A DNA stretch of 64,000 bases from a virus, in IMG/VR virus record IMGVR_UViG_3300037826_000057, positions 13,054 through 77,053 of that record; one strand, written 5' to 3'. Both the position numbers and the translations under genes were made by a program. The notes under the pieces were generated by a model. The model was not told the origin of the DNA, made no database searches, and saw only the letters and a list, made by a program, of their open reading frames with translations. Below, piece by piece: positions 854-63,244 of the stretch (the first letter of the stretch is position 1; each line of letters starts with the position of its first letter).

Positions 854-1032
854 AAATGTGTGAAATTTGTGGAAGCCCTAGTGAAGAGCGTATATGTGAT
901 TTGTGTTCTGAGCTTTTAGAGTCTGTGGACCAAAAAACTTTAAATGTATTTCTACATTCAATGCGTAAAAAGCGTAGGGATAGACCAAAGAAAGTAGAGA
1001 GGGAAATGGAAGATTATGAAGATTTTGCGTAG
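850..1032 (+). CDS. Small zinc-finger protein
   Basis: CEIC...CDLC; overlaps both neighbouring genes. Confidence 0.6.
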   Translation: MKMCEICGSPSEERICDLCSELLESVDQKTLNVFLHSMRKKRRDRPKKVEREMEDYEDFA

Positions 1033-2818: not shown

Positions 2819-2833
2819 TATAAGGAGATAAGT

Positions 2834-10950: not shown

Positions 10951-10964
10951 ATTATATTACCTCC

Positions 10965-11819: not shown

Positions 11820-11826
11820 TTTGTAA

Positions 11827-11852
11827 GGGGTGTGAGCGGTTACTCACACCCC
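11827..11852. other. Intergenic hairpin
   Basis: GGGGTGTGAG-CGGTTA-CTCACACCCC; no U-tract on the minus strand. Confidence 0.45.
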
Positions 11853-11885
11853 AATTTAATTCACCAACTTAATCCACAGGTTAAT

Positions 11886-12704: not shown

Positions 12705-13108
12705 GATAGTATTTCCTCCTTATTCTGGTAGATTGGGCATTCGTTTGTATATTCACAGTACCCACATTCACTCTCCAGGTACCGCCTCTTGTAACTTTCG
12801 CAGAAGAGACGGTCAAACTTTCTGCAGTAATTTCCTTCTATCTCCTCTAGTTTATTACCGCAGTAGCAATATGCTTGCAGATATTGCTTTTGCGGTGGAT
12901 ATTGTATCTCAAACCCGCAGGATGGGCACCTGACTACCGGCTTGGTACTGCGTACTGGTTCACTCGCATTTACATTCTGCGACAGGATTTGGGGGGTTAC
13001 CCCATCATTCGTGACGGTAACTCTAACTTGTCCTGTCACCTCAAGCATGATGGTTCCCTGGGCTTTTGAAAACTTGTAACTGCAATTTGGACATGTTACT
13101 TCAATCAT
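12701..13108 (-). CDS. Multi zinc-ribbon protein
   Basis: CPNC, CPSC, CYC and CGYC; ATGA-coupled to the ligase. Confidence 0.65.
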   Translation of the reverse strand: MIEVTCPNCSYKFSKAQGTIMLEVTGQVRVTVTNDGVTPQILSQNVNASEPVRSTKPVVRCPSCGFEIQYPPQKQYLQAYCYCGNKLEEIEGNYCRKFDRLFCESYKRRYLESECGYCEYTNECPIYQNKEEILS

Positions 13109-13117
13109 GTTACCTCC

Positions 13118-13471
13118 CTATCTAAATGTCTTGTTCTTTTTTGTAGAAGTCACCCACTCAAGAGAAACTCTCACGTTCAATATGTTTGAATACCTCCTTT
13201 CCCACTTGTTTTTTATACGTTCGGATTTCTGACCATTCAAAAACCCCCTCACTTGGTTTGTTCCGATTGCAGCCCATTTTATTACCCTGAAAGGCTTACA
13301 TTGATTCCAGGGTTTTGTTTCAAAGATTAGAAAAATTGGTCTTTCCTGTTTTTCTGCAGCTTTACAAATATAAGGTATCTGAGACATTTTGCTGATACCA
13401 GCAGTTAAACTTTGTCCGGTGTTACGGATTTGTGCTCCGAATTGAATAAATTTTGTTATATCTATTCCCAT
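13118..13471 (-). CDS. Hypothetical basic protein
   Basis: ORF in the operon. Confidence 0.6.
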   Translation of the reverse strand: MGIDITKFIQFGAQIRNTGQSLTAGISKMSQIPYICKAAEKQERPIFLIFETKPWNQCKPFRVIKWAAIGTNQVRGFLNGQKSERIKNKWERRYSNILNVRVSLEWVTSTKKNKTFR

Positions 13472-13479
13472 TTTAACCC

Positions 13480-14145
13480 TTACTCAATTTCAAAGTATTT
13501 CTTTATTACGGTTACCCCGTGTGGAGAAAATTTAGCCTTTTTGGCTAATTCAAATATATACGGGTCTTTTTGCGACAGCATAATAAGAAATCGTAATTTA
13601 ATCTCTTTGTCGTTTATATCATTTTCCTTTAACATCCAGGAGTATTCTGAGACCAACAAGGAAAATAATTGGGGGAAAACTACATCCGATGTGTAACGGA
13701 TTTCATCCCCTACGAGAAACCCGAAAGGTTGAGAATTTTCCAGGGTTTGTGTGGCCATTTCTAGAATAGTCTGTTCCAGAGTGTATCTTACTGCTGGCAC
13801 AGTGGGTATATCGGTATTTTCTGAAACCTCCCAAAGGAGATTATGGTCATCTCCTTCAATTCCCATTAACTGGCCATCCGTATTAATAGTAATTTTTTTA
13901 GGTAATTCTTTAGCAAGGTCTTTTCTACCCTGCATAAATTCCTTTGCCCAGTTAACTTTCGCATTGGAAGTATAGCATACCTGGTTGGGCCTTTCTGGGT
14001 CTAAGATCAAACCTGGGCAGTGGTTTACAAAGCTGGGGTAGAATTCATCGTTAAGCTCGTATTCACCGGCTAATACGAAGAGACCGTCTGTGCCGGTGTA
14101 TTTTCCTTTTTCAGCTCTGGCTGAGTGTAGTTGTCTATAGATCAT
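13480..14145 (-). CDS. Hypothetical protein
   Basis: ATGA-coupled to the RuvB-like gene; GGAGG RBS. Confidence 0.7.
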   Translation of the reverse strand: MIYRQLHSARAEKGKYTGTDGLFVLAGEYELNDEFYPSFVNHCPGLILDPERPNQVCYTSNAKVNWAKEFMQGRKDLAKELPKKITINTDGQLMGIEGDDHNLLWEVSENTDIPTVPAVRYTLEQTILEMATQTLENSQPFGFLVGDEIRYTSDVVFPQLFSLLVSEYSWMLKENDINDKEIKLRFLIMLSQKDPYIFELAKKAKFSPHGVTVIKKYFEIE

Positions 14146-14891
14146 ATTACCTCCCTACCATTACCTGTGATTTTGACTAACCCAGATTTTTGCAGGAACC
14201 TTTCACGCTCTTGCAATTCTCTGGGTGTAACCGATAAGATGTTTGAAAGTGTCTTCTTACTACAAGCACCGCTCTCTAATGTACTCAGGTACAAACGGTC
14301 TAAATTATCTAGACCATTCTCATCTACTTGCAGATACTCCTCCAAGATTTTTGCTACATTCCCAGGTGATTCTGGATAATTTTTATAGTCCATAATCGCG
14401 GTTACCTCTTCCGCTAATTTCACACCTCTGCGTGGTATACCTTTGCACCTGGGGGCGATTATATCGGTTGATGCCTTTTTAAGGTCAGTGTGTACACCGA
14501 TAATTTGAGATAGTTCTGTTTCAGTGTACCCACCAAGACGAATTTGGTAGGTACGACTGCGCATTGGTGCTGGTAGTTTTGCACTCATATTAGACACAAA
14601 TACAAAACTTCGGTCATTCATTAGTGGATAAAACTGTTCAAAATTTCTTATGGTATGGGCTTCATCTATTACTGTCAGGTGTGCTGACGGTAAATTATTT
14701 ATGGGTGGCAGTAAGTAAGCATACATTGCTATGCATGCTACCACAAATAAAGCTAAAGCAGTTTTACCCATTCCATAATGCCCCTTTAGAAGAATGTTGA
14801 CCGGATGGTCAAAACTCTTCTCCAGCAACGCCTGCATTCTGGTCTTCTGCTTTTCCTGCCCAATATAATTACTGGGGGGATTCATACTCAA
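14142..14891 (-). CDS. RuvB-like AAA+ ATPase
   Basis: YIGQE, Walker A GHYGMGKT, Walker B IDEAH, LPAPMRSR, sensor 2 KGIPR, VDENGLDNLDRLYL and ERFLQKSGLVKITGNGR winged-helix end. Confidence 0.82.
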   Translation of the reverse strand: MSMNPPSNYIGQEKQKTRMQALLEKSFDHPVNILLKGHYGMGKTALALFVVACIAMYAYLLPPINNLPSAHLTVIDEAHTIRNFEQFYPLMNDRSFVFVSNMSAKLPAPMRSRTYQIRLGGYTETELSQIIGVHTDLKKASTDIIAPRCKGIPRRGVKLAEEVTAIMDYKNYPESPGNVAKILEEYLQVDENGLDNLDRLYLSTLESGACSKKTLSNILSVTPRELQERERFLQKSGLVKITGNGREVI

Positions 14892-15657
14892 TTACCCCTT
14901 CTGCGTTAAGTTCCTGAAGGTGTTTAGCAAATAAATCTGTATAATAAGTCACGGTCTTGCTATTTAGAGCTGGCCCCGTGTTTACCTCAAAGACCAAAAC
15001 CTCACCTTGTCTGTTTCTAGCTATATCTACCCCGCCGTAAATTAAACCAAGTGCTTCAACCGCTTTTACAGCGGTCTCTGCGCATTTTGGGTAATATTTT
15101 TCTAGGTTCACTCTCTTGTATCCCCACCCGAATTTTGAGGTTCGGATTTTTTTATGTGCGTCATCCTCTCTGGGTACTTTTCTAAAGCCCTTTACGGCTT
15201 CACCGTTTACCACGTGTACCCTTAGTTCTCTATCGGCCTCAAAAAAGGACAGGAAATATTTGCACCCGCTTTCTCTTGCTTCAGCAGGTGCTTCTACGAT
15301 TTTAATATCTGCACCTGCTTTATGGTTGATCCTTCCCCGCCCAACCAGCGGGTATAAGCTTTCATCTTGAGGTGGAATGTGGTATACCTCTGCAACTGGT
15401 ATACCATTTTCCCCCATAACTTCGACAGCGCGGTGCCCACGTACTGCCAATCTAATACTGCTTCTTGGTTGCAAGGCAAAGTCGTTTTGTGCATACGTCG
15501 AGCTTCCCCACCGCACCACAACCTTGTTATTTTCTGGTGTCTTGGTATACCCAATTCCTAGGTTTCTTGCAATTTGTTTTGCAGTTTTGGACGTTGTGCG
15601 GTGATACAACACCTTTAAGTTTCTATTTGTTTGGGGGTAAAATCTATTATATATCAT
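14869..15657 (-). CDS. ATP-grasp peptide ligase (RimK/YheCD-like)
   Basis: VVRWG, ELRVHV, LGLIYGGVDI and FEVNTGP. Confidence 0.87.
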   Translation of the reverse strand: MIYNRFYPQTNRNLKVLYHRTTSKTAKQIARNLGIGYTKTPENNKVVVRWGSSTYAQNDFALQPRSSIRLAVRGHRAVEVMGENGIPVAEVYHIPPQDESLYPLVGRGRINHKAGADIKIVEAPAEARESGCKYFLSFFEADRELRVHVVNGEAVKGFRKVPREDDAHKKIRTSKFGWGYKRVNLEKYYPKCAETAVKAVEALGLIYGGVDIARNRQGEVLVFEVNTGPALNSKTVTYYTDLFAKHLQELNAEGVIEYESPQ

Positions 15658-16799
15658 TGCACTACCTCCTCAACTTCTTGTAGCATTTTCTCAAGCTCTT
15701 CGACCGTATGAAATACATACGGGTAAAATGTATCATTGGAGGTTATTGCGTCTACCTCGTATATCGTCAGACCCGAAATTGTTTCAATGCTTTCCGCAAT
15801 ACCCACTTTTTCAGGGGTACGGAATTCTAGCATAATATCTTCTACTTGTGATAAACCTTCTTTAATTTCTTCGGTGGAGCATTCGGATAATGGTTTCTCC
15901 ATTACATATTCTGCCCAACCCTCCACCTCTGTCCATGTTAGACCTTTGAGAAATTCAATAATTATTTCTGCCTTTTCTACCACTTCTGATTTATCATTTT
16001 TGGTGTAAGTTGTATACGCTTTTGTTACATTTCTTTTACCCTTCTCCCTAGGTAAGTCAGCGGTTTCAGTGTGTTCTCCATTTGTGTATTTCTCTACGGT
16101 GTTCCAAGTGAGTTTTTCTGGTTCTCCAGTCTCTACTTGGTATCCCCAAACTTTAGGAAGATTTTCTAGCCAATACCGTAAGTTTTCTAGAGCTTCTTTT
16201 GAGGTGTTGACTACGAGCATTTCTCTGTTTTCTGTGGTCACCTTCATTTTGTGCAGTGGGTTGGTGCCTCGCACTAAAAAGAGATTATCTTTTTGAATGA
16301 TTACTAACGCAAAAGAACCCTGCCATTTTTTCGTAACTGTTTTTATACTTTCAACAGTTACGGTTTTAGATTCTGAAATCAATGCACGAAGAAAAACCTC
16401 AGAATCACATGGTTCGTGCTCGATTTCACTCACCAATTTTTTATACACTTCGGAACTCTCATAACCTCTGAAGGTTCCATTATGTGCTAGATATACATCT
16501 TCACACATAAAGGGGTGTGCACCGTCTACACCCCCGGTACCTTTTGAGATTGCTCTTACATGCCCAAGAACGTGGTTTGCATTGTTTAGGTTAGGCATAT
16601 GTTCTTGAAACAGTTCGGTCTCTAAAGCTTTAGAGGCCGTCTTACCAGATTTAAAAGAAACAGTAGGTATTGCTACCCCTGTTCCATCAGTATTACCTTG
16701 TTGTTCGCCTGTAAGCAACAAGGTTTTCATTAAGAAAGGTTTTAAGCCTTTCTGGAATTGTTGTTGTGGTTTGTGAACTATTGCGGACAGTCTACACAT
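15654..16799 (-). CDS. Class II (Ntn) glutamine amidotransferase
   Basis: N-terminal Cys2, DGTG, GHVR, AHPF, AHNG, DSE and GSFAL. Confidence 0.88.
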   Translation of the reverse strand: MCRLSAIVHKPQQQFQKGLKPFLMKTLLLTGEQQGNTDGTGVAIPTVSFKSGKTASKALETELFQEHMPNLNNANHVLGHVRAISKGTGGVDGAHPFMCEDVYLAHNGTFRGYESSEVYKKLVSEIEHEPCDSEVFLRALISESKTVTVESIKTVTKKWQGSFALVIIQKDNLFLVRGTNPLHKMKVTTENREMLVVNTSKEALENLRYWLENLPKVWGYQVETGEPEKLTWNTVEKYTNGEHTETADLPREKGKRNVTKAYTTYTKNDKSEVVEKAEIIIEFLKGLTWTEVEGWAEYVMEKPLSECSTEEIKEGLSQVEDIMLEFRTPEKVGIAESIETISGLTIYEVDAITSNDTFYPYVFHTVEELEKMLQEVEEVVQ

Positions 16800-16810
16800 T
16801 AATTACCTCC

Positions 16811-17866
16811 TTAGATTATTGTCAGGTTGGCGTACCCAGGAATGAGTTGCAAATTTTCCTCTCTGGTAAATTCATCAAACCCAAATGTATTATCCGGGTC
16901 TATGATTTCTGGACGTAAACTTTCGGGACAGTTTCTAAACCTGTAGGTGTGTCCCAGGTGCCCTCTTTGGTGTCCGTGGACACCACGCGGAAACCTCCTT
17001 GGCAGTTCCCATAATTCTTGCATTGTGGGTATATATTGTGGGGCAGGGTCTAACCACTCAATTAATTCATCGAGTGTTAAGTTGTCAGTACCCAGGGGAT
17101 TTCTGGGTAGTCTTTCGGTACCTTTCTTCCAGAAAGCCGACCGCACCAACTTTTTACTTAATTCAACCCAAGTAAATAAATACTTGGGGGTAAGCGTAGA
17201 ATTAAATAAGCGTAGTTCAGTTGTTTCCTGGGTAAAAAGTGATAATAAGTTTAACCAGACGTACCTGGCTTCGTGGTATCTGGCTCCTGAATAATTCCCT
17301 AGCGATTTAGCTAGGTTTTTTGATGATTCTAGATTGTTAATAATCTTCTCTGCGTCAAACACTTTGCGCAGGTGGCCTTTACGGTCATGCACAACGGGAG
17401 GTGAAAGCAATGGCCGGCAATAACCATAGTCTGCTCTTAACTCGCCTCGGTGCCGACCTACCTCACCACAAGCAAGTCTATAAAAACCTGCTTCTAGGTA
17501 TAATCCCACTTCCAAGATATTCTTAATTATTTCAGCTGGCAAGTCTCCGGTATGTACGTGAACGTGAATACCGGTTTGGGCATTCACGCCCTCTCCGGTA
17601 CTTTTTAGAGCAGACAACAATTGCCTAACTTGGTCTTTCCATCGTTCGTCATTTTCGGTGTCTAAAATGGGCGAAACAAATTCTCCCCCGCACTTTACCT
17701 GTCTGAAGACAGGTTTGCTGGTGCGTAAAGTACCTCCCAGCACATGAGAGTGTGACCTACATGACCCGTCTTCCACCAAACGCCAGCCAGGCGGTGTAAG
17801 GTTGCGTAGGAAGCTTTTAGCAGAGTTCCTTGCTTCAATTTCTATACCCACATTCATAATTAACAT
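16811..17866 (-). CDS. Putative amidoligase (COOH-NH2 ligase fold)
   Basis: VGIEIE, EDGS, GEFVSPIL, TGIHVHV, RYVWLN and TELRLFNST. Confidence 0.87.
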   Translation of the reverse strand: MLIMNVGIEIEARNSAKSFLRNLTPPGWRLVEDGSCRSHSHVLGGTLRTSKPVFRQVKCGGEFVSPILDTENDERWKDQVRQLLSALKSTGEGVNAQTGIHVHVHTGDLPAEIIKNILEVGLYLEAGFYRLACGEVGRHRGELRADYGYCRPLLSPPVVHDRKGHLRKVFDAEKIINNLESSKNLAKSLGNYSGARYHEARYVWLNLLSLFTQETTELRLFNSTLTPKYLFTWVELSKKLVRSAFWKKGTERLPRNPLGTDNLTLDELIEWLDPAPQYIPTMQELWELPRRFPRGVHGHQRGHLGHTYRFRNCPESLRPEIIDPDNTFGFDEFTREENLQLIPGYANLTII

Positions 17867-47580: not shown

Positions 47581-48021
47581 CTAACCTTTATCTTCCAATA
47601 ATGTTACCGTTATCCTATTTGGTTCCGGTACACCTTTGATTGCATAATTTTTCATATACATTTCCTTTGCGTCCACCTCATAATGGTGTGAATTCCGAAC
47701 AGCAGTAAGATTGTACCCACTCAAACCTACCGTAGCTTGGCAATCACCTTCATGCACTTTCCCGCCCTCAGACCAAAGGGGCTGTTCTGAAGAAAACCAC
47801 CTAACGTGTGCTAATACGGGATAAGCAGAAATAGTATTTATCCAATAATTACCATCACAAGTTTCACAAAAAGGGTCTGTTGAAAGATTAGTAGTTGGGT
47901 CTAGTGAGCATTGAGAACACGCCTCACCACTTACCTCAACATAAATAGTAATCTCTCTACCAATAGTATTTCTAATTTCATCTATTGTTTCTTTTGTATT
48001 TGAAGGAAATGTTATATTCAT
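47581..48021 (-). CDS. Putative head-closure protein with a zinc motif
   Basis: CSQC...CETC; gene position. Confidence 0.55.
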   Translation of the reverse strand: MNITFPSNTKETIDEIRNTIGREITIYVEVSGEACSQCSLDPTTNLSTDPFCETCDGNYWINTISAYPVLAHVRWFSSEQPLWSEGGKVHEGDCQATVGLSGYNLTAVRNSHHYEVDAKEMYMKNYAIKGVPEPNRITVTLLEDKG

Positions 48022-50486
48022 ATCACTCGTTTAAAAATCTTATCCCATTGCTTGCCAATTTCAGACCACTTAAACTTATCCCGGGTAACAAAATTATAAA
48101 TTTTGTCGGCATATTTTTGGCGCGTAGTATCATCATACATAACTTGCAGAGATTTTGCTACCGCATCTGGCGAAACAACCTTACCCTCAGTTAGAATGTC
48201 AGGATAAGTATAATTGTATGAAATAGGAATCTTATACATCACATCATCTGGGTATATTGTCTTATAGGCAGAACTATTAGGTACAATTTGTGCCCTATGG
48301 CACGCTGCTTGTTCCATAGAAGTATTATGAAGAATCACACCATTACCTACAAAGCTGTGAGAATCTCTGACAGAAATATCCATAACTTCCTGACGTCCTA
48401 ATTTTTCTATATCTCTAACTTGTGTGAAAATATAATTTTCTGTATGAACATAATATTGTCGTCTAGCTCTAGAGGATTCTCTAAGAGGTACCTCAATAAG
48501 TTTCCTAAACAACTTCTCCTCAAAACCGCCAACTGTTACTTTATATTGTGGGAAATTACCAGCCTCTCGTTGTGGGTATGTGTTGAAAGTTGCAAATATG
48601 TGATTAGTCCTCAAAATATAGAGAATTTGCCAAGCCAGTTGTTTTGATACAGTGGTAACAGACCAAGAACCGTTACTAGATTTATGTCCGTCGCCCTTGA
48701 AATATCCCCTCAAAAGTGGTCCTAGGCTTGTCGCTGACTTCCAAAGGAGATTATGTAGCCTCTTATTGTTTGCCCCACTCCCACATAAAGCGGTTAAAAA
48801 ATCTCCTAAAATGGAAGAGCAACAATCTAGAGCACTACGATTGCCTGTTTCTTTTCTATAGGCGGTTGCATATACATTAAATGCTTTTCTCAAATAGACT
48901 TTAAATCTTTTAGCTACTTGTAGTTCATTCCCGTGAAGTGAGAGTTCTACTTTATTATAACTATAAGAACCTTCTGCTAGATACCAACCTAAAAACTCTA
49001 AAAAGTCAGAGTCAATTTTAATAAACCTATTAACTCTATTTGGTTGGGGGAGTTCAAAGTCTTCCCCGTATTTGGTTAGTATTTCTTTAGCTACTAAATT
49101 AGACTCTGTGCTTTCATCCGCGGGAATAAATTCACCACTAATTATTTTCCTAGCATTTTCAATAACCTTTTTCGTAGTATTAAACTCTTTCATTAATGAA
49201 GATATAGAAAACTTACGGTTTAGCCCGGAATAGCCGTGTTTATTCCAAATATGCTTAGAATCGTAATCAATAGTATCTCCACTAACAAACTCTGCCAAGT
49301 CCAAATATTCCGGCAACGGCTCTTTCCAATCTGGTATTGGCACTCCTATAAAGTCACCTACCGTTATTTCAGATAATGGAAGCCATTTAGTGTCTTTTTC
49401 TGAGTAGTCGGTATTGCTAGGTTGTCCCATGTATTTAATTGTTAAGAAAGGGTGCTGTTTAGTAACTACAACGTCCGGAATGCCTCTACCGGATACAGAA
49501 TAAGCAGTATCAACTCTACCAATCTTATCCAAAACATCATAGAACTTACCATTATGAGAGAGAACTCTATCCCCAATTGACAAGTCTTCCATTTTTACAC
49601 TTCCAGAGTCAGTCAAGATTTCTGTGCTTGGGTCAACACATAGCCCCCAACCTTCACCCATTGAGGTATTGAGGCCGACATCAGCAGCATTATAGATATA
49701 ATTCAATCTTTCATCACTTACATAAGAGTCTGGGCCTAATTCGAGTGATGTAAGTAGCAACCGCTTCTCAATACCATAACGCTTACACAAACGAATAACT
49801 GACCAACCCATATCTTTTTCACCCATATGACAATATAGCTTCACATTGTCTGGTTTACCTTCTGCAAACTTAGCAAAGCCCTTAATTGTAAGGTCAATGC
49901 GTTTACGCGGTTGATTGCGATTCGCATTTAAAACCACAAAATCTCCTGGAAAGACACCATTTAAATAAGCCCTAGCCTCTGTCATATTCATTGGAAAGAA
50001 AGTTTCTGTGTCAAGGCCGTGTGGCACAATACCAATATCTGCTTTTGGAAAATAGTCAGTAATTGCACTCTTTCCAAATTCTGTATAAGCATATGGGTGT
50101 GATAATTCAACCAAACGTTCAACCCACTCCCTATCTAAAGGTTTGGCATCTACCGGAAAATAAGTAACAATTGGCTTATCAATCTCACGCAACCTAAACA
50201 AATACTTATATAAAACCCAGGTATCATTTAAGATGAAAATAAAATCTGGGTCAACATTATTAACCAAGCTGTCTAAACGCCCAAACCCATATAGGTCACC
50301 CCCAAGCATCGCGGGGTACATTTTGTGATCTGCGGGGTATGGGTCACCTTTGTAATTAATAGCTAAGTGATGAATATCATAATCATCCGGCAAATTATCA
50401 ATAATACTATGCACCACCCTAGCAAAACCTGTAGCAACTCCACCATCACCAATAAAAAGCCCTGTAATCCTTCCCTTATTATCCAT
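48018..50486 (-). CDS. GT4-family glycosyltransferase containing an intein
   Basis: TGFARV, PHGLD, NRNQPRKRID and YNAADVGLNTSMGEGWGL|TSMEQAAC. Confidence 0.9.
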   Translation of the reverse strand: MDNKGRITGLFIGDGGVATGFARVVHSIIDNLPDDYDIHHLAINYKGDPYPADHKMYPAMLGGDLYGFGRLDSLVNNVDPDFIFILNDTWVLYKYLFRLREIDKPIVTYFPVDAKPLDREWVERLVELSHPYAYTEFGKSAITDYFPKADIGIVPHGLDTETFFPMNMTEARAYLNGVFPGDFVVLNANRNQPRKRIDLTIKGFAKFAEGKPDNVKLYCHMGEKDMGWSVIRLCKRYGIEKRLLLTSLELGPDSYVSDERLNYIYNAADVGLNTSMGEGWGLCVDPSTEILTDSGSVKMEDLSIGDRVLSHNGKFYDVLDKIGRVDTAYSVSGRGIPDVVVTKQHPFLTIKYMGQPSNTDYSEKDTKWLPLSEITVGDFIGVPIPDWKEPLPEYLDLAEFVSGDTIDYDSKHIWNKHGYSGLNRKFSISSLMKEFNTTKKVIENARKIISGEFIPADESTESNLVAKEILTKYGEDFELPQPNRVNRFIKIDSDFLEFLGWYLAEGSYSYNKVELSLHGNELQVAKRFKVYLRKAFNVYATAYRKETGNRSALDCCSSILGDFLTALCGSGANNKRLHNLLWKSATSLGPLLRGYFKGDGHKSSNGSWSVTTVSKQLAWQILYILRTNHIFATFNTYPQREAGNFPQYKVTVGGFEEKLFRKLIEVPLRESSRARRQYYVHTENYIFTQVRDIEKLGRQEVMDISVRDSHSFVGNGVILHNTSMEQAACHRAQIVPNSSAYKTIYPDDVMYKIPISYNYTYPDILTEGKVVSPDAVAKSLQVMYDDTTRQKYADKIYNFVTRDKFKWSEIGKQWDKIFKRVI
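48324..49640 (-). mobile_element. Intein (439 aa) with LAGLIDADG endonuclease, in the glycosyltransferase
   Basis: CVDPSTEILT, VTKQHPF, LGWYLAEGS, LRGYFKGDG, ends ILHN with Thr at +1. Confidence 0.9.
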
Positions 50487-50505
50487 TGTTTTTCTCCTTT
50501 AATAA

Positions 50506-51246
50506 TTACTTTTCACCAAGTAATTTTTGCCAATAAGCGTGTTGAAAGTCAGCTGTCTGATTTAAGAGTCTTGGATTGAACCAATTAATCCAATCCCCTA
50601 TAATACCTTTTCTGCGCCAACGGTCATTACGCTTTTCCTCACCAGGTTTTCTACCTGATTTGTTTTTAAAAGAATGCTTTTCACAAATATGCTCGATTCT
50701 TCTATCTGTAACCTTAATACCTAAGAAGTCAGAAATTTCCCGTACTTGCTTCTGAATATCCTGCTTCATCCATTCATAAGAAGTCCAAATATATCCTGAA
50801 TTTGTATGCCTTTTCTCTCCACCAGAATATGTACTAGCTCCTTTTTGCATCATATCAAGCATGCGCTTAGTATTATCTACGAATGCCTGGTTTTCTATAG
50901 TGCTTAAAATCGCTTCCTGGTCTGAGTTAAAATTCTGAGGCTTACCAAATCTATCATAACGCGCGTGGAATGCACGCGACACACCACGGTCTCTTGGATT
51001 TCTTACCACTCCAATCACATAATAATTATGCGGAACCAATGCTTCAAATATTTCATCTTGTGTAACGTGATGATATTTGACGATTCTTGCATTGTGCATA
51101 TAATCCCTAACCACATCAAGCTTTGAATTCAAATGCCGCCTATCAATCTCTGGACTTGTGTCCATATTATACAAATCCTTCAAAAGATAATGCAGCCATC
51201 TAGAACCCACACGCATCTCCGAAGTAATAATAATCTTTTTATTCAT
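50506..51246 (-). CDS. PAPS-dependent sulfotransferase
   Basis: 5'-PSB loop SEMRVGSRWL, 3'-PB RNPRDRGVS, SYE and C-terminal RKGIIGDWINWF. Confidence 0.88.
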   Translation of the reverse strand: MNKKIIITSEMRVGSRWLHYLLKDLYNMDTSPEIDRRHLNSKLDVVRDYMHNARIVKYHHVTQDEIFEALVPHNYYVIGVVRNPRDRGVSRAFHARYDRFGKPQNFNSDQEAILSTIENQAFVDNTKRMLDMMQKGASTYSGGEKRHTNSGYIWTSYEWMKQDIQKQVREISDFLGIKVTDRRIEHICEKHSFKNKSGRKPGEEKRNDRWRRKGIIGDWINWFNPRLLNQTADFQHAYWQKLLGEK

Positions 51247-52108
51247 AAGTTCTACCCTTTAATAACTTCCTAAAAGCTGCCCTATGTGAATCTTGCCAAT
51301 GTTTTAAGGTATAATTATTTGAAATTTTTCTAAGTTTCTGCTGGTCGTGTTCGTCATCTAAGCATTTCTTAATTGCTTCAGACATAGACTCAAAATTACC
51401 AGCCTTAAAATACCTTACCCCTTCCTGCTCCCCAAATTCGTCCAACATACCAACACCCTTGGGAATGACTAATTTTACTCCACAAGCCAATGCTTCCAAT
51501 GGAGGTATTGGTATACCCTCTATTAACGACGTACATAAATAAATTTGTAACGACCTAAAAAACCTTGGCATATTCCCGCCTGTTACATGCCTGTGTTTTA
51601 CTGGCCACCCGCGCCCCACAACTCTAAAATCTATATCATTTGATAATTTACTATTACTAAGAGCCTTAACTAGATGTAACCCCTTTCTATTTCCTTCTGT
51701 TACGTAACCCGCCAACCCCACAATTGGTTTAGTAACCTTTTTACCAATGGTAAATCTACTATGATCAACATACGGGGTAACTTTACATACTAAAGCGCGT
51801 GTCTGTGTTTTAAGTAACTCCATATATTGATCTGCGCATGTAGTACAAATATCATATTCTTTCGCCAACTTTCGCCAGCGTCTAGACTTAGCAGACTTTT
51901 CATTATAATGACTAAACCAAGCACCTGTAAATGTTTTATACTTTTTTGGTGCCAAACCCTGAAGATAACACATCCCATAATTTATATCTGCACTTTGGTC
52001 CGGGTTTCTCCCAATAGAATAACTGGGTTGCCCCCTCACTAGGCCCCGACCAAGTCTTGGAACTATTTTTCCACTATTTGGGCGTTTGACTAATACTCTT
52101 ACTTGCAT
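51239..52108 (-). CDS. GT4-like glycosyltransferase
   Basis: RKG and TSLIEGIPIPPLEALACG. Confidence 0.85.
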   Translation of the reverse strand: MQVRVLVKRPNSGKIVPRLGRGLVRGQPSYSIGRNPDQSADINYGMCYLQGLAPKKYKTFTGAWFSHYNEKSAKSRRWRKLAKEYDICTTCADQYMELLKTQTRALVCKVTPYVDHSRFTIGKKVTKPIVGLAGYVTEGNRKGLHLVKALSNSKLSNDIDFRVVGRGWPVKHRHVTGGNMPRFFRSLQIYLCTSLIEGIPIPPLEALACGVKLVIPKGVGMLDEFGEQEGVRYFKAGNFESMSEAIKKCLDDEHDQQKLRKISNNYTLKHWQDSHRAAFRKLLKGRTYE

Positions 52109-53064
52109 TTGTATTTCCGTATTATATCTGATACACGATTGCGAATAGCTTCAAAACTATAATATTTTTTTATAAATTCAAATCCTCTTTCACGTTGGCG
52201 CTTATAATAGTTTTCATCTTGTATCAATCTAACTCCTAACTCTACAGCGCGTTGTGTATCAAAAGGATCACATAAAGGGTGTCCAGTTGGATTAGTCCAC
52301 ATACTACCAACCATTGGAGTTCCTATTATAGCGTGTGCTAGTCCGTGTCTGTTTTGTGCATGCGCAGCATACATATCTACGCCAATTAAAGATGTGCCTA
52401 TAATTTTTATAAATTCCCGGTAATTAACTCGCGGATTGAATTTTATATTAGATATACTTGTTAATTTAGCTGTCCTCTTAGTATTGTTTCTTGGTAAAAA
52501 ATATACAATTCTAGCGTTCGTTGCGCTATTTATTCCAGCTAGAACAGCTATATTTTGCATAGTTCTATTCGGCTCGCTCTTGTGATCAACAGTGAGAATA
52601 TATTTCTTTTTTGGCAAAGACCTATATTTTTTGTATGCAGTAGTAGGACCTATTGGTGAGGGCAACCATTCCCCAGGAACCCCTGTAAGATTAGAGTACA
52701 AGTTTGCAGCTTGCCTAGTGCGTGCCGCTATTACATCACAATAATTTTTAATGTCCTTAAGTCTAGTTATACCTTTATTATGATTTAAAAACTTTTCTAG
52801 ATGTGGGTCTGGCATTGCAACAATTAAAGCATTCGGACGGGCGTCTCTTAAATGTTTTAGATGTAAAGAATTAAAAAATAAATTAACTAAAAAAACATCG
52901 TAATTATTTAGAACTTTTCTACCTATTGGAGTCTTTTCCCAATAAAGTCTATGACATTCTAACGCTCTTGGCAGAGCCGAAATACCAACAACTGGTTTTT
53001 CTGGATGCTTAAATTTTTCAATGCGTTTTTTAGATTTGTATACATATGCAACACGCTCAAACAT
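52099..53064 (-). CDS. GT-B fold glycosyltransferase-like protein
   Basis: HAIIGTPMVGS and RERGFEFIKKYYSFEAI C-terminal pattern. Confidence 0.62.
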   Translation of the reverse strand: MFERVAYVYKSKKRIEKFKHPEKPVVGISALPRALECHRLYWEKTPIGRKVLNNYDVFLVNLFFNSLHLKHLRDARPNALIVAMPDPHLEKFLNHNKGITRLKDIKNYCDVIAARTRQAANLYSNLTGVPGEWLPSPIGPTTAYKKYRSLPKKKYILTVDHKSEPNRTMQNIAVLAGINSATNARIVYFLPRNNTKRTAKLTSISNIKFNPRVNYREFIKIIGTSLIGVDMYAAHAQNRHGLAHAIIGTPMVGSMWTNPTGHPLCDPFDTQRAVELGVRLIQDENYYKRQRERGFEFIKKYYSFEAIRNRVSDIIRKYKCK

Positions 53065-53595
53065 TTATAACCACTTTCCAGCTACATTACTGTCTATAAA
53101 ATTAACTGGTTTATATTTCAATTTGCATTCTTTAGCCAACCATTTTAACGTTGATTTTGGATAATGTAAAAGAGCTTGAAAATCTAACATATAGTATTCT
53201 ACATCTTTGGATTTAATCGCGGACAAAATCATAAGATACGCTTTCTGTATATTTTCCAAACCTTTTCTATAAGTATTTACATGTTTGCGCCTAGAAGTTT
53301 GTGAACTTATTGTACTTTTCCAATCTCTTATAGGCACGATTATTACAGGCTTATATCCAACCGCTTCAAACTTTTCAATATATGTTTCTAAATCCGGCCA
53401 CGCATTTGCGTGTGGAAAGCTCCTTCTTAATACCACATCTTCTTTATCTTGTAAAAATTTTTCCAGATTATTAAGGTGCTTGTCAATTTCTTGTTTATGT
53501 GTGTATTGCCCATAAACACCCCACTTAACCAAAATTTTAGCAAGTAAGCGCGTACCAGAACTTTCGGAGCCTGCAATTAAATATGCTTTAGGCAT
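53065..53595 (-). CDS. Sulfotransferase-like protein
   Basis: IAGSESSGTRLL loop, IRDWKSTISS and FQALLHYP. Confidence 0.72.
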   Translation of the reverse strand: MPKAYLIAGSESSGTRLLAKILVKWGVYGQYTHKQEIDKHLNNLEKFLQDKEDVVLRRSFPHANAWPDLETYIEKFEAVGYKPVIIVPIRDWKSTISSQTSRRKHVNTYRKGLENIQKAYLMILSAIKSKDVEYYMLDFQALLHYPKSTLKWLAKECKLKYKPVNFIDSNVAGKWL

Positions 53596-54325
53596 AACCT
53601 TCTCTAAAATTATATGGTGCCCTGAAACCTTCTAGAGCTTGGCGTGATGTTCCATATAGTTTTCCATTCAATAGTTCATCAAGCAACTCTTCATCTCTAT
53701 CTAACATATCTCTAGCTGTGCGCCCAGCACCCAAATTGGAGTATTGAATTTCATCATCGCGCCAACTTTGTAAATCCCAGGTACTATTTTTTAGCTCGGC
53801 ACTCTTAATAATAATAGCTGCCTGTACCACAATCGGCGCTTCATCTGCGAATTCAATTGTTGGTGGTGCAGATTCTTTAAAAGTGCGTTTAGAATTTCTA
53901 CTAATGTTACCTTCTGAATCAACTTTATACTTTCTACGCCACCTGCGTCCAAGAACTTTGACAGCATCGAGTAAAGAATTTCTCAAAAGTTCTTTAGAAA
54001 ATGTATAATCATCCGGGTCTATATCTCCAAGAAACCTGCGTAGAGATGGAATTAAATAATCTAAATCAGTGTATGTAAATTCAACTACTGTGAATGTACC
54101 GCTTTCTACGTAAGCAACTCCGCCCGAATAACCAAACATTGTCCACTCATGCTCACCCTCACCAGAAGCTAAATAGTTTGCATAATAAGTTTTGTTATCC
54201 TGTTTAACTGGTGTTAGCTGGCGGTTAGCTCCGCCTGGTGTCATCAATGTTCCTGATGCTGTAGTTATAGCATGGTCAAAGTTAGCGGTTATTCTGACAG
54301 TTTCTTGAACTTCATACTTTGGCAT
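53588..54325 (-). CDS. Head-tail adaptor with N-terminal Ig-like domain
   Basis: LRRFLGD...FSKELL, WRDDEIQYS; gene position. Confidence 0.62.
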   Translation of the reverse strand: MPKYEVQETVRITANFDHAITTASGTLMTPGGANRQLTPVKQDNKTYYANYLASGEGEHEWTMFGYSGGVAYVESGTFTVVEFTYTDLDYLIPSLRRFLGDIDPDDYTFSKELLRNSLLDAVKVLGRRWRRKYKVDSEGNISRNSKRTFKESAPPTIEFADEAPIVVQAAIIIKSAELKNSTWDLQSWRDDEIQYSNLGAGRTARDMLDRDEELLDELLNGKLYGTSRQALEGFRAPYNFREGYA

Positions 54326-55000: not shown

Positions 55001-55575
55001 CGCTGTGTTATTCAAGAAGCTTCGGTTTGCTTCTTACTCTCATTATCGCTAATGAGGCCGGACTATACTATCACCCTTTCGGGGGCACCCCTCTAGTCTC
55101 TGGACCTTGCCCATTTAAGAGCCTTGGCTGCTGATTGTCTGCAATTAAGATTTTCAGATTACGTTTGCCTTTTCAAGCTCCGCTTACTATCTTAATATAC
55201 TCAGATGTTCCAGCAATTTGAGTGCTTGCTTAATAAGTATTTCTACTTATTAGCTGCCTCTTTTAGCTCTGCTTCCTTGACATTTAGTATTTTTAAAAAT
55301 CTATTTACAAATGTATATTCTCTGAAATTTATACTGGTGTGGCATTCTTTACATAGTGTGATACCGTTGTCTACTTCATATACCAGCTCTGGATAGTCTC
55401 TTTTTGGTAGTATATGGTGTCCGTGCAAACAACAATTTTTATCTCCACACATTTGACAAGTATAATTATCCCTTTTTAAAACTGTAGAATGTCAAGTTAT
55501 TTAGTTACGCTAAGCTAGTAATATCTAGTACATAAATTCCCATAACATTATCTACAAGCATGCTAAAATTTTGAA
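55001..55575 (-). mobile_element. Group I intron 2 in the major capsid gene, with a duplicate 3' exon and an HNH remnant in loop L1
   Basis: P1: exon AGCUGU with guide GCAGCU (55252-55257), U-G at the splice site; P2 AAUAAGUA-GAAA-UACUUAUU; P AAUUGCUGGAA; Q AAUCAGCAG; R CAGAGACUA; S GUAUAGUCC; P9 CUCAUUA-GCGA-UAAUGAG; terminal G. Confidence 0.88.
55243..55491 (-). pseudogene. 5'-truncated HNH homing endonuclease
   Basis: VLKRDNYTCQMCG...HGHHI...NGITLCKECH; in-frame TGA at 55492-55494 directly upstream. Confidence 0.8.
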
Positions 55576-56252: not shown

Positions 56253-57091
56253 CAATTTTGTTACTCTATCTAATGATAGGAGCAAGATATTTCTACTTGC
56301 CTCTGCATATTACTATACAGTTCGGACTATCTCATCACCTCTATTCGGAGGGTTTACCGTATGGATATAATTTATATTCAAAACTGGGTAATATGTAGTC
56401 TTTAATACCATTAATAAACCTGTCGTAACTTGTACTTCTCAAAATTAAATAGTATTTAATTCCTGTTTTACTTTGAGAGTGTTTTCTTACATTGAACTCT
56501 AAATTTAACTTGTTTTTGATTGTTCTTTTTAGTAACCAATTATTAGCATAATCATGACTTAATGTTGCTAAAGTTACTACTGGTGTACATTCATAATGTT
56601 TGTCTTTATAGTATCTGTCAGTTCTAACATTACTTCCATCATCCATAAATAGTATAGCCAGCGATTCCCAATCAAATAATTTCAAATAATGTGTATCAAA
56701 TACTTTGTGGTTATAATGGTATAATCTTGTTCTTACTTTTGTATATAGTGGGTGGGTATGTGTTGTCGTTTTAAGAATGTTTTTTCGTCCCTTTCGGGAT
56801 TCATTTATTGTGTAGAGATTTACATTTGTGATATTTTCTAAAATGTTTTTTCTCCACTCTGCATAATCTCTATGGTCATCTGTTACTGTTGCTTCAAAAC
56901 GACAATTTTTACCGTGGTAGTATACACCGCCATCACCATAACAAAATGCAACTACATATTTTAAAAGTTCTTTTTTATCCATAGTCTCTACACCTCTCAT
57001 AACGAGTTGGCACGGGATTGTCCACTTGGGAGTTTCCCCGTTTTTAGGTAAATTTTCTATAATAATTACTTATTAAAGCCCCAATAAGTTT
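56253..57091 (-). mobile_element. Group I intron 1 in the major capsid gene (839 nt)
   Basis: P1 GCCCU/GGGGC with U-G; P2 UAAUAA-GUAA-UUAUUA; P AAAACGGGGAA; Q AAUCCCGUG; R UAGAGACUA; S GAUAGUCC; terminal G at 56253; splicing restores the frame. Confidence 0.9.
56341..57000 (-). CDS. Intron-encoded LAGLIDADG homing endonuclease
   Basis: AFCYGDGGV and LAILFMDDGS, ending ILPSFEYKL; lies between the R and S elements; likely start at MDKK (56982). Confidence 0.88.
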   Translation of the reverse strand: MRGVETMDKKELLKYVVAFCYGDGGVYYHGKNCRFEATVTDDHRDYAEWRKNILENITNVNLYTINESRKGRKNILKTTTHTHPLYTKVRTRLYHYNHKVFDTHYLKLFDWESLAILFMDDGSNVRTDRYYKDKHYECTPVVTLATLSHDYANNWLLKRTIKNKLNLEFNVRKHSQSKTGIKYYLILRSTSYDRFINGIKDYILPSFEYKLYPYGKPSE

Positions 57092-60505: not shown

Positions 60506-63244
60506 CTACAAAATCCCCCAACGTGGTTTATAAAGCTCTGGGCGCTGTTGCCATTCAAAACTGTTCAACTCAAATTTTAAATAATATCCAATAACTGCAC
60601 ACAAAAAAGCTGAAAGATTATGGTCTTCACCTTTTCTAATACCACCTCTAGGCGTTGTTGTCCTGAAAACTAACTCGCCAGAAGGCGTGCGCCTGTATGT
60701 AGTTCTCTCTAACTCATTAATAAGACTTTCGTCTTTCCAAGTTAATTTGTAACGATGGTTATTTAACTTAGATTGTAAGAGTTCCATTCCAAATTGTTTA
60801 GCTCTTACCTCAACCTCTTTACCCTCTTCATCAATACCTACTGGTATTGAAGACCTAAATTCAATAGGCACCACCCTTTCTTGATAATGCTTGTGTGAAT
60901 ATTTTGGGTCATTGCGCAAATGCTGTACAACCGCCTTACCTGAATGTCCAGCATCAATCGCTAACATATCTGGACTATAATGAGAATCTAACTTATCTAT
61001 TATACCTTCTTGCTTATGGTAATCAACAGAATTAAGACGAATTCTTGCTAAATATTTCCAGGAATCAGAGCGTTTATAACGATACCAAATTAAAATAATA
61101 GTGGGATCAGTGTAACCTAAATCAATACCAAATATTAACTCAGAAATATTGCGTGGCTTCTTTGGTAGCGCATTAAATAATCTTAGCAGGTAACTTGGGT
61201 CTTTATTTAATTTTTGCCCATAGACTGAACCAGTAAATACATCATAATTACCAATTAACATGCGTTCACGGTCAAACATAGCATAGGATGGTATGCCGTG
61301 TTCACCTAAAATTAAATGCACATAATCTTCACTATCCTTACCACCATACTGTTTCAAATTACGCGCATCCATTTCTTCGGTGTAGCGTGGGTTATCAAAA
61401 GCGGATATACGATGTTTAGTATATTTTTCATCTTTCTGGTCTGCATAATACAGGACATTGTTTTCTCGCAGACCGGTTGGCACACCAGAGACAATTAGCT
61501 GGCTACCTTCTTGCCATTCATTCAAGCAAGGCATTAATTCAGTAAATGTGCCATAGGGGTAAAACCCCGCCTCGTCCAAAAGAATTATTGGGACATGCAA
61601 TCCGACAACATTTGCACCAGTACCAGACTGTCCAGCAATGCGACAATCAATTACCGCCCCATTGTGCAGCTTAATAGTAAAACTCTGTGAATTTATACCA
61701 GTACGCCCTGTATAGTGCTGAAGTAAACTATGGGTTCTATACCAGCGTCTAAGCCTAAGAAAAACCGGTTCAAGATGAACACGGCTAGGTACAGTATATA
61801 CAATTGTTTCATCCCAAAAAGTGTTTAAAGTATACCAAACTAAACGATCAATCAGTGAGACGGTATTGTGGGAGTAAATATCATCAACTACATGGGTATT
61901 ATTTGGATTTACCTCATACCCATAAGTTGTTTTTGTCCCAATAGGCTTAATTCTTTTTACTGGTACCCACCGAATATTAGCTGACTCGAACTTTTCAAAT
62001 AGATCATCTTTGTTTTCAACTTTTTTAGCGGTATAAAAAGTTGGGTAATATCTTAGTTTTCTTTTTCGTGGGGTTCCATTACAGGAATTTGAATCCAGAT
62101 AATAATAGTCGGAATAATTAGATAATGGCAAAACATCTGCTTGGTTAGCTTTGTTCTCTGATGATGACATTAATTTCTCAGCAGACTGTTTTTTTCTTTT
62201 AATAGAAAAGTTAATATTCTCAACAAAATTTTTTACGTTTTTATACCCCTTGATACTCAAACTATGTTTACCGTGATAACCATTATCTGAGAAAGAGTAA
62301 CTGCAAACAATCCCAAATCTTAACAATAAGTGATGTAAGTCTCGAATTAGTAATTCTGACGAAGAACAATAACCTATTTCAGTGTCACACGCCCATCCAT
62401 CACCATCAAATAACGTAGATAAAAATAAAGCAAGGTCTTTTTTCTTTAATTTAAAAAGTTCTCTTGGAATATGCTTATCATAAGAATGTTTATACCTTAG
62501 GTTAAACTCTTCTAATAGTTTATAATAGGCTCCCTTTTTATAATCCCTAGTAGTAAGAAAATACATATTGGCTTGATTGTTATCCAATATCTCTTCTCTT
62601 ACTTCCATACCTTTAGCTTGGGCATATTCATAGATATATTCTTTAAGTTTTTCTTCCGAGGTAGTTATAGAACCAGTTTTATAGGTACCCTCAGATATAA
62701 ATAGTCCTAATATCCTTAAGTCTTCCTCTGGTAAACTGTACTCACCAAAATATGGAAGCTCTTTGGGAACAGCTATTAAATCTCCCTCTTTTAAATCTTC
62801 AGCATTTACCCAGCCCGTATTAGTAAGAAATGGGTGATTGTAGGTGACCTCGGTAGTAAACCCTTTTTTTAGAAAAATCTTTAATACTGGCTGTTCACCA
62901 TTTTCAATAAAAATTGGTTTACTTATTTCTTGTTTCCATTCTCTGTTTATGGATACTATTGTATCTAAAGAATTACCCCACTCCTTAATAGTTTTATATT
63001 CACCAGTCTTGGGGTTTAATATCCTTGCATTTCCACTGAAACATTTTCCAACAGCTCTAGCGCAACACATAGAAACATACTTATTAAAATCACATAGGAA
63101 TTCTTTTTGGTAATCAGTATATTCCCATTCTTCATCCTCTTCATCTAAATCAAAGGAACGAATAAATTCTCCGCACCAGACAGGATGCCTTAATATTTCT
63201 AATAATGCTAATTCCTTTTCACTTAATTTCTCTAATAGTGGCAT
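60506..63244 (-). CDS. terL: Terminase large subunit containing an intein
   Basis: YQ, Walker A ARAVGK|T, Walker B ILLDEA, SGVPTG, nuclease FGIDLG and EDHNLSA. Confidence 0.92.
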   Translation of the reverse strand: MPLLEKLSEKELALLEILRHPVWCGEFIRSFDLDEEDEEWEYTDYQKEFLCDFNKYVSMCCARAVGKCFSGNARILNPKTGEYKTIKEWGNSLDTIVSINREWKQEISKPIFIENGEQPVLKIFLKKGFTTEVTYNHPFLTNTGWVNAEDLKEGDLIAVPKELPYFGEYSLPEEDLRILGLFISEGTYKTGSITTSEEKLKEYIYEYAQAKGMEVREEILDNNQANMYFLTTRDYKKGAYYKLLEEFNLRYKHSYDKHIPRELFKLKKKDLALFLSTLFDGDGWACDTEIGYCSSSELLIRDLHHLLLRFGIVCSYSFSDNGYHGKHSLSIKGYKNVKNFVENINFSIKRKKQSAEKLMSSSENKANQADVLPLSNYSDYYYLDSNSCNGTPRKRKLRYYPTFYTAKKVENKDDLFEKFESANIRWVPVKRIKPIGTKTTYGYEVNPNNTHVVDDIYSHNTVSLIDRLVWYTLNTFWDETIVYTVPSRVHLEPVFLRLRRWYRTHSLLQHYTGRTGINSQSFTIKLHNGAVIDCRIAGQSGTGANVVGLHVPIILLDEAGFYPYGTFTELMPCLNEWQEGSQLIVSGVPTGLRENNVLYYADQKDEKYTKHRISAFDNPRYTEEMDARNLKQYGGKDSEDYVHLILGEHGIPSYAMFDRERMLIGNYDVFTGSVYGQKLNKDPSYLLRLFNALPKKPRNISELIFGIDLGYTDPTIILIWYRYKRSDSWKYLARIRLNSVDYHKQEGIIDKLDSHYSPDMLAIDAGHSGKAVVQHLRNDPKYSHKHYQERVVPIEFRSSIPVGIDEEGKEVEVRAKQFGMELLQSKLNNHRYKLTWKDESLINELERTTYRRTPSGELVFRTTTPRGGIRKGEDHNLSAFLCAVIGYYLKFELNSFEWQQRPELYKPRWGIL
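61865..63043 (-). mobile_element. Intein (393 aa) with LAGLIDADG endonuclease, in the TerL Walker A motif
   Basis: CFSGNARIL, VTYNHPF, LGLFISEG, LSTLFDGDG, ends YSHN with Thr at +1. Confidence 0.92.

Follow-up and report, generated by a model that had tools for sequence, protein, structure and literature searches.

The 64,000-nucleotide stretch analysed here, hereafter called the window, corresponds to bases 13054-77053 of the 77,053-bp IMG/VR viral contig IMGVR_UViG_3300037826_000057 (completeness estimate 96%), the genome of an uncultured 77-kb siphophage which sequencing-run records place in tidal-flat metagenomes. Between its capsid and neck genes and its tail genes lies a cluster of five co-oriented minus-strand genes (48018-53595), encoding two predicted sulfotransferases and three predicted glycosyltransferases, which would build and sulfate a phage-made glycan. 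This prediction is well supported, because at 13 of 15 loci with a sulfotransferase gene of the same family glycan genes are found nearby, and because some relatives carry an adjacent APS (adenosine 5'-phosphosulfate)-kinase-like gene. The sugar chain itself and the placing of the sulfate on sugar are what we infer from the genes, the latter from the near-constant pairing of the sulfotransferase family (ST246) with glycan genes. The acceptor is probably to be sought among the phage's own virion proteins, to which a probability of about 0.5 is assigned.

Organization of the five-gene cluster

The cluster, its intein, its two flanking genes and a tract shared with the related phage contig L002 are as follows, in window coordinates and with lengths in amino acids (aa):

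53588-54325, minus strand: putative head-completion/neck protein, 245 aa, upstream of the cluster (from gene order)
53065-53595, minus strand: ST176, minimal sulfotransferase-fold protein, 176 aa (from fold and motifs)
52099-53064, minus strand: GT321, GT-B fold glycosyltransferase-like protein without EX7E, 321 aa (from predicted structure)
51239-52108, minus strand: GT289, GT1/GT4-type glycosyltransferase, EX7E intact, short N-terminal domain, 289 aa (from Pfam and motif)
50506-51246, minus strand: ST246, predicted SULT-type sulfotransferase dependent on 3'-phosphoadenosine 5'-phosphosulfate (PAPS), phage-only family, 246 aa (from Pfam and motifs)
48018-50486, minus strand: GT4 precursor, 822 aa (N-extein 49641-50486, intein 48324-49640, C-extein 48018-48323)
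48324-49640, minus strand: LAGLIDADG intein, 439 aa, inside the GT4 EX7E motif between L282 and T722
47581-48021, minus strand: CxxC...CxxC protein, 146 aa, downstream of the cluster and kept in relatives (from gene order)
51237-53394, no strand: near-identical tract of 2,158 bp, 99.7% identity to L002

Re-reading of the open reading frame (ORF) coordinates reproduced exactly the genes and junctions described in an initial annotation of the window: the genes overlap (53588-53595, 52099-52108, 51239-51246, 48018-48021) or abut (53064/53065), with one gap of 19 nt (50487-50505). The late co-expression suggested in that annotation is plausible from the tight packing within a structural operon, the lack of a standout internal terminator and the position of a strong terminator after the major tail gene. 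The latter, 3' of the gene, was the only strong terminator in the late region; counts in the promoter and terminator scans were at chance level, and no cluster-internal terminator rose above it.

The flanking genes had been named adaptor and head-closure genes. Gene order supports these names, but profile searches with the 245-aa and 146-aa proteins gave no family match and no significant PDB-sequence match. The 245-aa protein has an extra, beta-rich-looking N-terminal part of about 85 aa (aa 1-85) in the window and L002 only, its homologues elsewhere having 163-166 aa, and the two phages with the extension are the two which carry the ST176-GT321-GT289 cassette described below.

No transmembrane segment was found in the five cluster proteins (top KD19 value 1.38). 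Lipid-carrier transferases, flippases and polymerases were likewise absent among the ORFs scanned with Pfam and PHROGs, the small early ORFs at 18-30 kb being unscanned. The isoelectric points (pI) of ST176, GT321, GT289 and ST246 were 9.6-10.1, that of the GT4 extein 5.95 and those of the adjacent structural proteins 4.2-5.1.

The predicted sulfotransferases ST246 and ST176

ST246 matched the Pfam family Sulfotransfer_1 (PF00685) with an E value of 3e-23 (83 bits, cut-off 22) and contains the sequence RRKGIIGDW, as expected from the initial annotation, in which it was a sulfotransferase with the full RKGxxGDW motif. All PAPS motifs are invariant: residues R12, G14, S15, W17, K57, H59, R82, S90, R212, K213, G214 and D218 did not vary in 26 aligned homologues and include the 5'-phosphosulfate loop (R12/G14/S15/W17), the catalytic K57/H59, the 3'-phosphate site R82/S90 (R-x7-S) and the C-terminal RKGxxGDW. 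The best PDB sequence matches were cytosolic small-molecule SULTs. The family has 86 homologues, all of them metagenomic and some on contigs of 50-99 kb, the size of phage genomes, whereas searches of 185,579 prokaryote species (one genome each) and, by tblastn, of 50,697 deposited phage records yielded none. As judged by these searches, the family is phage-only. No APS kinase, ATP sulfurylase or PAPS reductase gene was present in the whole 77-kb genome, which extends to the entire contig what had been stated of PAPS synthesis for the window, and PAPS of the host must therefore be used.

ST176 gave no Pfam, PHROG or NCBIfam match, an empty PDB-sequence profile search and only three homologues, and its alignment with the ST246 family by hhalign was not significant (probability 1.6%). 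Atlas comparison gave TM values of 0.68-0.86 to sulfotransferase clusters, and the pLDDT of its AF2 model was 82. The best VIA matches were sulfotransferase domains (Z 10.9, 10.3, 9.9, 9.7), among them an olefin-synthase sulfotransferase domain (10.9), TPST1 (10.3) and Stf1 and NDST1 (both 9.7); P-loop kinases trailed by no more than about 1 Z unit (Z ≤9.6). The protein has a phosphate loop, GSESSGTR, without the kinase Lys, a motif RRSFPH and the pair R90-x7-S98. The designation of ST176 as a sulfotransferase is based on the fold, the Lys-less P-loop and the R-x7-S motif, not on any sequence-family match; it is the weakest of the five assignments, and PAPS-dependent sulfotransferase activity is an only moderately secure prediction from the model.

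The glycosyltransferases GT321 and GT289

Both proteins had been described as GT-B enzymes, which was confirmed for GT289 by Pfam and EX7E and for GT321 by its predicted GT-B fold. GT289 matched Glyco_trans_1_2 (PF13524; 1e-13, 51.9 bits) and Glycos_transf_1 (PF00534; 6.5e-11, 42.5 bits); its EX7E motif is intact (EGIPIPPLE) and its N-terminal domain short. GT321 had no family match and no significant match in a PDB-sequence profile search. Its AF2 model (pLDDT 90) was matched by Foldseek to the GT4 enzymes BshA, PimB' and MshA (E 3e-11, TM 0.72). EX7E is missing, the region reading DMYAAHAQNRH with D230, Y232, H235, R239 and H240 invariant. As the GT4 donor motif was not found, GT321 is classed, from the model, as having a GT-B fold only. 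A homologous GT321-GT289 pair, with 39% and 45% identity, was also found in L025, within the head module of a contig from an unrelated phage.

The GT4 glycosyltransferase and its intein

The 822-aa ORF consists of a 383-aa GT4 glycosyltransferase split by a 439-aa Hint and LAGLIDADG intein (aa 283-721). The initial annotation had given the correct enzyme class, as the match to PHROG 2170 (1e-35) indicates, but had overlooked the intein. The intein-free GT4 orthologue of L002 scored 34 bits on PF00534 (cut-off 26.4). The EX7E motif of the window enzyme (E-GWGLTSM-E) is rejoined across the intein junction. The intein matched the Pfam families Intein_splicing, Hint_2 and LAGLIDADG_3, has the borders GEGWGL/CVDPS ... 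VILHN/TSMEQ, and contains C1, a block B TKQH, two LAGLIDADG motifs, the terminal HN and Thr+1. The GT4 orthologues of L002 (399 aa) and L003 (395 aa) are without exactly aa 283-721. The insert is, by these sequence features, a class 1 LAGLIDADG intein and is predicted to splice.

About 60 of the best 150 GT4 representatives in a full-database phmmer search were 700-1,000 aa in length and had an intein at the same EX7E site, with the common pattern GEGxGL/C...HN/[TSC]xxE, so the intein allele is widespread. In sequencing run X2 an intein-free allele occurred at a depth of 52, compared with 71 for the intein-bearing allele. Positions 48322-49644 are skipped in it and six other letters stand in their place; the same joint was seen in run X5. 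This allele is in frame and encodes 383 aa with the sequence GEGWGL-I-SMEQ, in which Ile replaces the splicing nucleophile Thr. The GT4 intein is polymorphic in the tidal-flat population.

No description of GT4 inteins was found in the literature. The intein resembles the LAGLIDADG inteins of phage terminases and replication proteins in being of class 1, in its homing endonuclease, in its insertion in a catalytic motif and in its polymorphism in the population, but differs in that its host protein is a GT4 glycosyltransferase. The genome has three inteins, in GT4, in the Walker A motif of the large terminase subunit TerL and probably in a metallophosphatase, which are not closely related to each other. 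The TerL gene (60506-63244, minus strand) contains a 393-aa LAGLIDADG intein at about 61865-63043 within Walker A (AVGK/C...SHN/T), and its L002 orthologue (517 aa) is intein-free. A 600-aa metallophosphatase-like ORF at 1016-2818 (plus strand) has an apparent third intein of about 316 aa (GLGDY/CLSEDTEIL...VTILGN/CDY), with a sub-threshold LAGLIDADG_3 match and a terminal GN instead of HN.

Gene order in related phages

The comparison set consisted of 15 non-redundant loci of at least 5 kb with an ST246-family gene, plus L021. The synteny survey found the GT4 gene fixed in the neck slot and the ST246 family close to glycan genes. In the window, L002, L005, L006, L060 and L021, GT4 is flanked by the 245-aa homologue on one side and the 146-aa homologue on the other; the L003 contig, which begins within the island, shows the GT4-146-aa junction only. 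GT4 identity among the relatives was 40-61%, comparable to that of portal and capsid. From this gene order, GT4 appears as a core gene of the neck slot, in 6 of 6 lineages and in L021.

The position of the sulfotransferase gene varies. It is directly upstream of GT4 in the window, L002 and L003, and ends an array of glycan genes between those for TerS and TerL in L005 (as the last gene but one), L006, L012, L039 and L060. At 13 of the 15 loci recognisable glycan genes are at most 10 kb away, including those for NeuB, a cytidine monophosphate (CMP)-transferase, DUF115-type ulosonic-acid transferases, GT2 enzymes and FkbM methyltransferases. The L005 and L060 arrays encode nucleotidyl- and CMP-transferases, an RraA-like aldolase, NeuB (1.6e-53), two DUF115-type transferases, a GT2-like protein and FkbM. 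In the L006/L008 lineage one protein combines an adenylyltransferase-like domain with a domain resembling APS kinase (Pfam 7e-21; TIGR00455 2.5e-24, under the equivalog cut-off), and further genes encode FkbM, GT2s, a DUF115 protein and a sugar nucleotidyltransferase. In all, APS-kinase-like genes occur in three lineages other than that of the window. The L003 island contains a methyltransferase and two genes without assigned function, and in the distant phages L004, L010, L011, L044 and L050 the sulfotransferase is accompanied by GT1/GT2, FkbM, NeuB-type or APS-kinase-like genes. Matches of the relatives' proteins to DUF115/Maf fell below the Pfam cut-off and were weakly WaaZ-like as well, and they are not used here as evidence for a protein acceptor.

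Synechococcus phage S-EIVl (L015, KJ410740.1) has a GT4 homologue with 35% identity and, about 8 kb from it, an annotated sulfate adenylyltransferase gene, and might serve as a model in culture for sulfate activation by phages.

Exchange of a cassette between phages

The late regions of the window and L002 share 50-70% DNA identity, whereas the tract from 53394 to 51237 differs at only 7 of 2,158 positions (99.7%). It spans the 3' two-thirds of the ST176 gene and the whole of the GT321 and GT289 genes, the GT321 and GT289 proteins being 100% identical. In runs X3 and X4 the tract formed its own unitig with exactly the same ends, at a depth equal to the sum of the flanks of the two phage types (587 versus 549 + 28 in X4, 43 versus 29 + 15 in X3); both phages therefore coexist and have the cassette in common. 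An assembly chimera as the source of the cassette was ruled out by the separate, same-ended unitig in these two other runs and by the summed depth. The cassette has been exchanged recently between phages. In run X2 (positions 51245 and 52355-52387) the cassette depth (90) was below that of the window-type flanks (109-121) and loose contig ends lay within GT321; further cassette variants probably circulate in the population.

The probable acceptor of the predicted glycan

The five genes may be explained as a late cytoplasmic module for building and sulfating a glycan. Three GT-B enzymes would assemble a short glycan from nucleotide sugars of the host, GT4 becoming active only once its intein has been spliced out and EX7E rejoined, and the two sulfotransferases would add sulfate esters with host PAPS. 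The acceptor would most likely be at least one virion protein of the phage itself, these proteins being assembled in the same compartment at the same time, and the outcome would be a particle with an anionic, variable sugar coat. Given the solubility of all five proteins and the absence of lipid-carrier transferases, flippases and polymerases from the scanned ORFs, the chemistry is expected to be cytoplasmic, on an acceptor present there late in infection. Virion proteins are the most economical such acceptor, considering the neck position of GT4, its homologues in the head modules of isolated phages, the corresponding slot in Cluster J mycobacteriophages and the precedent of Che8-type phages. 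The varying island content and the recent exchange of the 2.2-kb cassette fit diversifying selection on an exposed structure.

Several observations weigh against virion proteins as acceptor. Glycan, sulfate and acceptor are predicted from the genes, and the function of ST176 from its fold. An acceptor motif was not found: the structural proteins are without long Ser/Thr runs, and Ser+Thr contents of 20-21% are reached only in the 193-aa and 402-aa structural proteins. Four of the five enzymes are so basic that a DNA substrate would suit them too, phage GT-A and GT-B enzymes do glycosylate DNA from clusters which can adjoin structural genes (bioRxiv 10.1101/2023.12.21.572611), and the genome has both an amidoligase cluster and a divergent ThyA-like gene. 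Being soluble, the enzymes could also use lipid-linked precursors of host glycans on the inner side of the membrane as substrates. The claim of the initial annotation that a glycan is built and sulfated on capsid or tail proteins rather than on DNA is well supported as to the building and sulfation, while the target is only a best guess. Its premise, that glycosyltransferases of structural operons glycosylate the virions of some actinophages, needs amendment, as Che8-type genes are near the right genome end (PMC11256854), and the structural-operon islands which do exist, in Cluster J, have had their target left open (PMC3706429).

A less likely explanation is that the enzymes remodel an envelope glycan of the host (lipopolysaccharide, capsule, S-layer or cell-wall polymer) late in infection, through lipid- or nucleotide-linked precursors at the cytoplasmic face, possibly with the purpose of keeping progeny from re-adsorbing to debris or infected cells. 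Surface-polysaccharide loci typically contain the accessory families seen in the relatives (NKWYS capsule protein, FkbM, GT2, NeuB, a weak WaaZ-like Kdo transferase); BshA, PimB' and MshA, the closest structural matches to GT321, use small or lipid acceptors; and the variability of the islands recalls O-antigen diversity. However, no initiating transferase, flippase, polymerase or membrane protein was found among the scanned ORFs, and GT4 is fixed in the neck slot across lineages, unlike a moron. Neither an integrase or lysogeny gene among the scanned ORFs nor a prophage copy was found, which makes classic serotype conversion unlikely.

Hypermodification of the phage DNA, in which a hydroxymethylated pyrimidine would be glycosylated and then tailored to shield the genome from host nucleases, is judged somewhat less probable again. 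Attachment of mono- to oligosaccharides to 5-hydroxymethylcytosine or 5-hydroxymethyluracil is a known activity of phage GT-B and GT-A enzymes, whose genes frequently accompany ThyS-like or 5mYOX genes and in some cases lie close to structural genes (bioRxiv 10.1101/2023.12.21.572611). Besides the basic pI of ST176, GT321, GT289 and ST246 and the phiEco32-type amidoligase/ATP-grasp cluster, this explanation is favoured by the ThyA-like protein (223 aa, genome positions 2411-3082, L020:2411-3082, outside the window), which retains the catalytic Cys and the dUMP-type Asn and might be either a genuine ThyA or a hydroxymethylase of dUMP. Its gene, however, lies some 13 kb or more away from the cluster, with packaging and head genes intervening, and no cluster glycosyltransferase was within 10 kb of a 5mYOX/TET or ThyS-like hydroxymethylase gene, the arrangement by which membership in DNA-hypermodification systems was judged. 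No TET/JBP gene and no C5-methyltransferase was found in the genome, the former a weak negative, as the Tet_JBP control matched no genome. The cluster is in a late structural operon, whereas DNA modification is normally early or middle; the conserved GT4 extein is acidic; and the best structural matches were GT4 enzymes, not the T4 beta-glucosyltransferase. No sulfated DNA base is known to have been described.

That the sulfotransferases act elsewhere, on tyrosines of phage or host proteins as TPST and RaxST do or on a small metabolite, and independently of the glycosyltransferases, is improbable. Tyrosylprotein sulfotransferases rank high among the structural matches of ST176 (Z 10.3, 9.9), and cytosolic small-molecule SULTs head the PDB sequence matches of ST246, which would agree with it. 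But any sulfotransferase would give such fold matches, the ST246 family adjoins glycan genes at nearly every locus, and GT4 in three lineages, and ST176 shares one exchanged tract with two glycosyltransferases.

Late region and other genome features

The siphovirus-type late region runs on the minus strand from 63866 to about 31900, in the following order:

Head part, minus strand: TerS-like protein, intein-bearing TerL, portal, protease-scaffold, 193-aa protein, intron-split capsid, 167-aa and 245-aa proteins
After the head part, minus strand: the five-gene cluster, then 146-, 80-, 288- and 144-aa proteins
Tail part, minus strand: 402-aa major tail protein, strong terminator, 1,585-aa tape measure, distal tail genes

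ORFs elsewhere in the genome include those for PolA, RecA, DnaB, ribonucleotide reductase, three N6/N4 DNA methylases and the divergent ThyA-like protein. The closest isolated relatives by portal and capsid were Microcystis phage MaeS and the Bacillus Slash/Basilisk group, at just 22-30% identity, and blastn of the cluster region against the 50,697 phage records gave no match. Assignment of a host through the capsid was rejected, the two contigs of metagenome-assembled genomes that matched (labelled Bathyarchaeota and Pseudoxanthomonas) being most likely mis-binned phage DNA, and ST246 was without relatives among prokaryote genome contigs which could have indicated a host.

Two group I introns are located in or beside the capsid gene (55039-55290 and 56253-57091, both minus strand). 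One scored 53.9 bits on Rfam RF00028; the other holds a LAGLIDADG_2 ORF (56341-57000) and is missing from L002. A patch near the capsid gene (55005-55203) has 95-99% identity to L002. The region 10120-17866 (minus strand) encodes an amidoligase_2 protein, a class II glutamine amidotransferase, a RimK-like ATP-grasp protein, a RuvB-like protein and a phiEco32-type COOH-NH2 ligase, and this amidoligase/ATP-grasp cluster may make a peptide or base modification.

Comparison with known systems and significance

Virion glycosylation has been described for the mycobacteriophages Che8 and Rita (Freeman et al. 2023, as cited in PMC11256854 and PMC12582341). According to these accounts, soluble phage glycosyltransferases, comparable to those of the cluster, glycosylate capsid and tail proteins in the cytoplasm, resulting in a glycan shield. 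In Che8 the glycosyltransferase genes are near the right genome end and not in a head-neck operon (PMC11256854); as far as these accounts go, Che8 and Rita have no sulfotransferase, and their hosts are actinobacteria, whereas the present phage is known from its genes alone. Cluster J mycobacteriophages have an island of 8-10 genes between the capsid and head-tail connector genes, the target of which was left open (PMC3706429). It occupies the same genomic slot and contains several glycosyltransferases and tailoring enzymes, in genomes rich in inteins and capsid introns, but its tailoring enzymes are S-adenosylmethionine (SAM) methyltransferases and a Ser/Thr kinase, not sulfotransferases (PMC3706429). 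No sequence relationship was detected between the Cluster J island and the present cluster.

Homologues of the GT4 enzyme are found in head modules of isolated phages, with the gene orders portal-glycosyltransferase-galactosyltransferase-methyltransferase in Synechococcus phage S-CBS4, capsid-glycosyltransferase-adaptor in Microcystis phage Mae-JY09 and capsid-glycosyltransferase-methyltransferase-GT2-neck in Pontimonas phage phiPsal1. S-CBS4 gp014, in the island gp014-016, is a true GT4 homologue (37% identity over 95% of its length). As in the present phage, the glycosyltransferases of these three are situated amid portal, capsid and neck genes, but their partners are galactosyl or GT2 transferases and SAM methyltransferases, with no sulfotransferase and no intein. 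Clusters for DNA glycan hypermodification also contain GT-B or GT-A enzymes, sometimes several, near structural genes or linked to ThyS, but need a close 5mYOX/ThyS partner, and sulfotransferases are unmentioned for them (bioRxiv 10.1101/2023.12.21.572611); in the present genome the ThyA-like gene is far away. In the literature phage sulfotransferases count as auxiliary metabolic genes without a known role (PMC10580990, PMC8290583), and according to one of these papers the role 'remains unclear' (PMC10580990). No published account of a sulfated phage glycan was found.

The layout varies the theme of the glycosyltransferase islands already known from the structural modules of phages. New are the two sulfotransferases, one of them belonging to a large family found only in phages, the association in relatives with genes for PAPS supply and nonulosonic acid, the exchange of a cassette and the intein of the core GT4. 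As a tentative generalization, tailed phages of marine sediments may coat their particles with a sulfated glycan made wholly in the cytoplasm by phage enzymes and shuffled by cassettes between co-occurring phages like an O-antigen serotype, with nonulosonic acid in some relatives and the core GT4 as a hotspot of homing inteins.

A GT4 glycosyltransferase can be a major home of inteins, which argues for strong selection on the enzyme in these phages. The locus offers a compact, testable set of five genes with natural variants, since some alleles have the intein and others lack it, and the same is true of phages and the cassette. In animal mucus, algal cell walls and marine gels, most of the polyanionic material consists of sulfated glycans. 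If the glycan is indeed carried by the virion, the adhesion of phages to particles and mucus, their avoidance of aggregation or grazing, and their recognition would have to be rethought.

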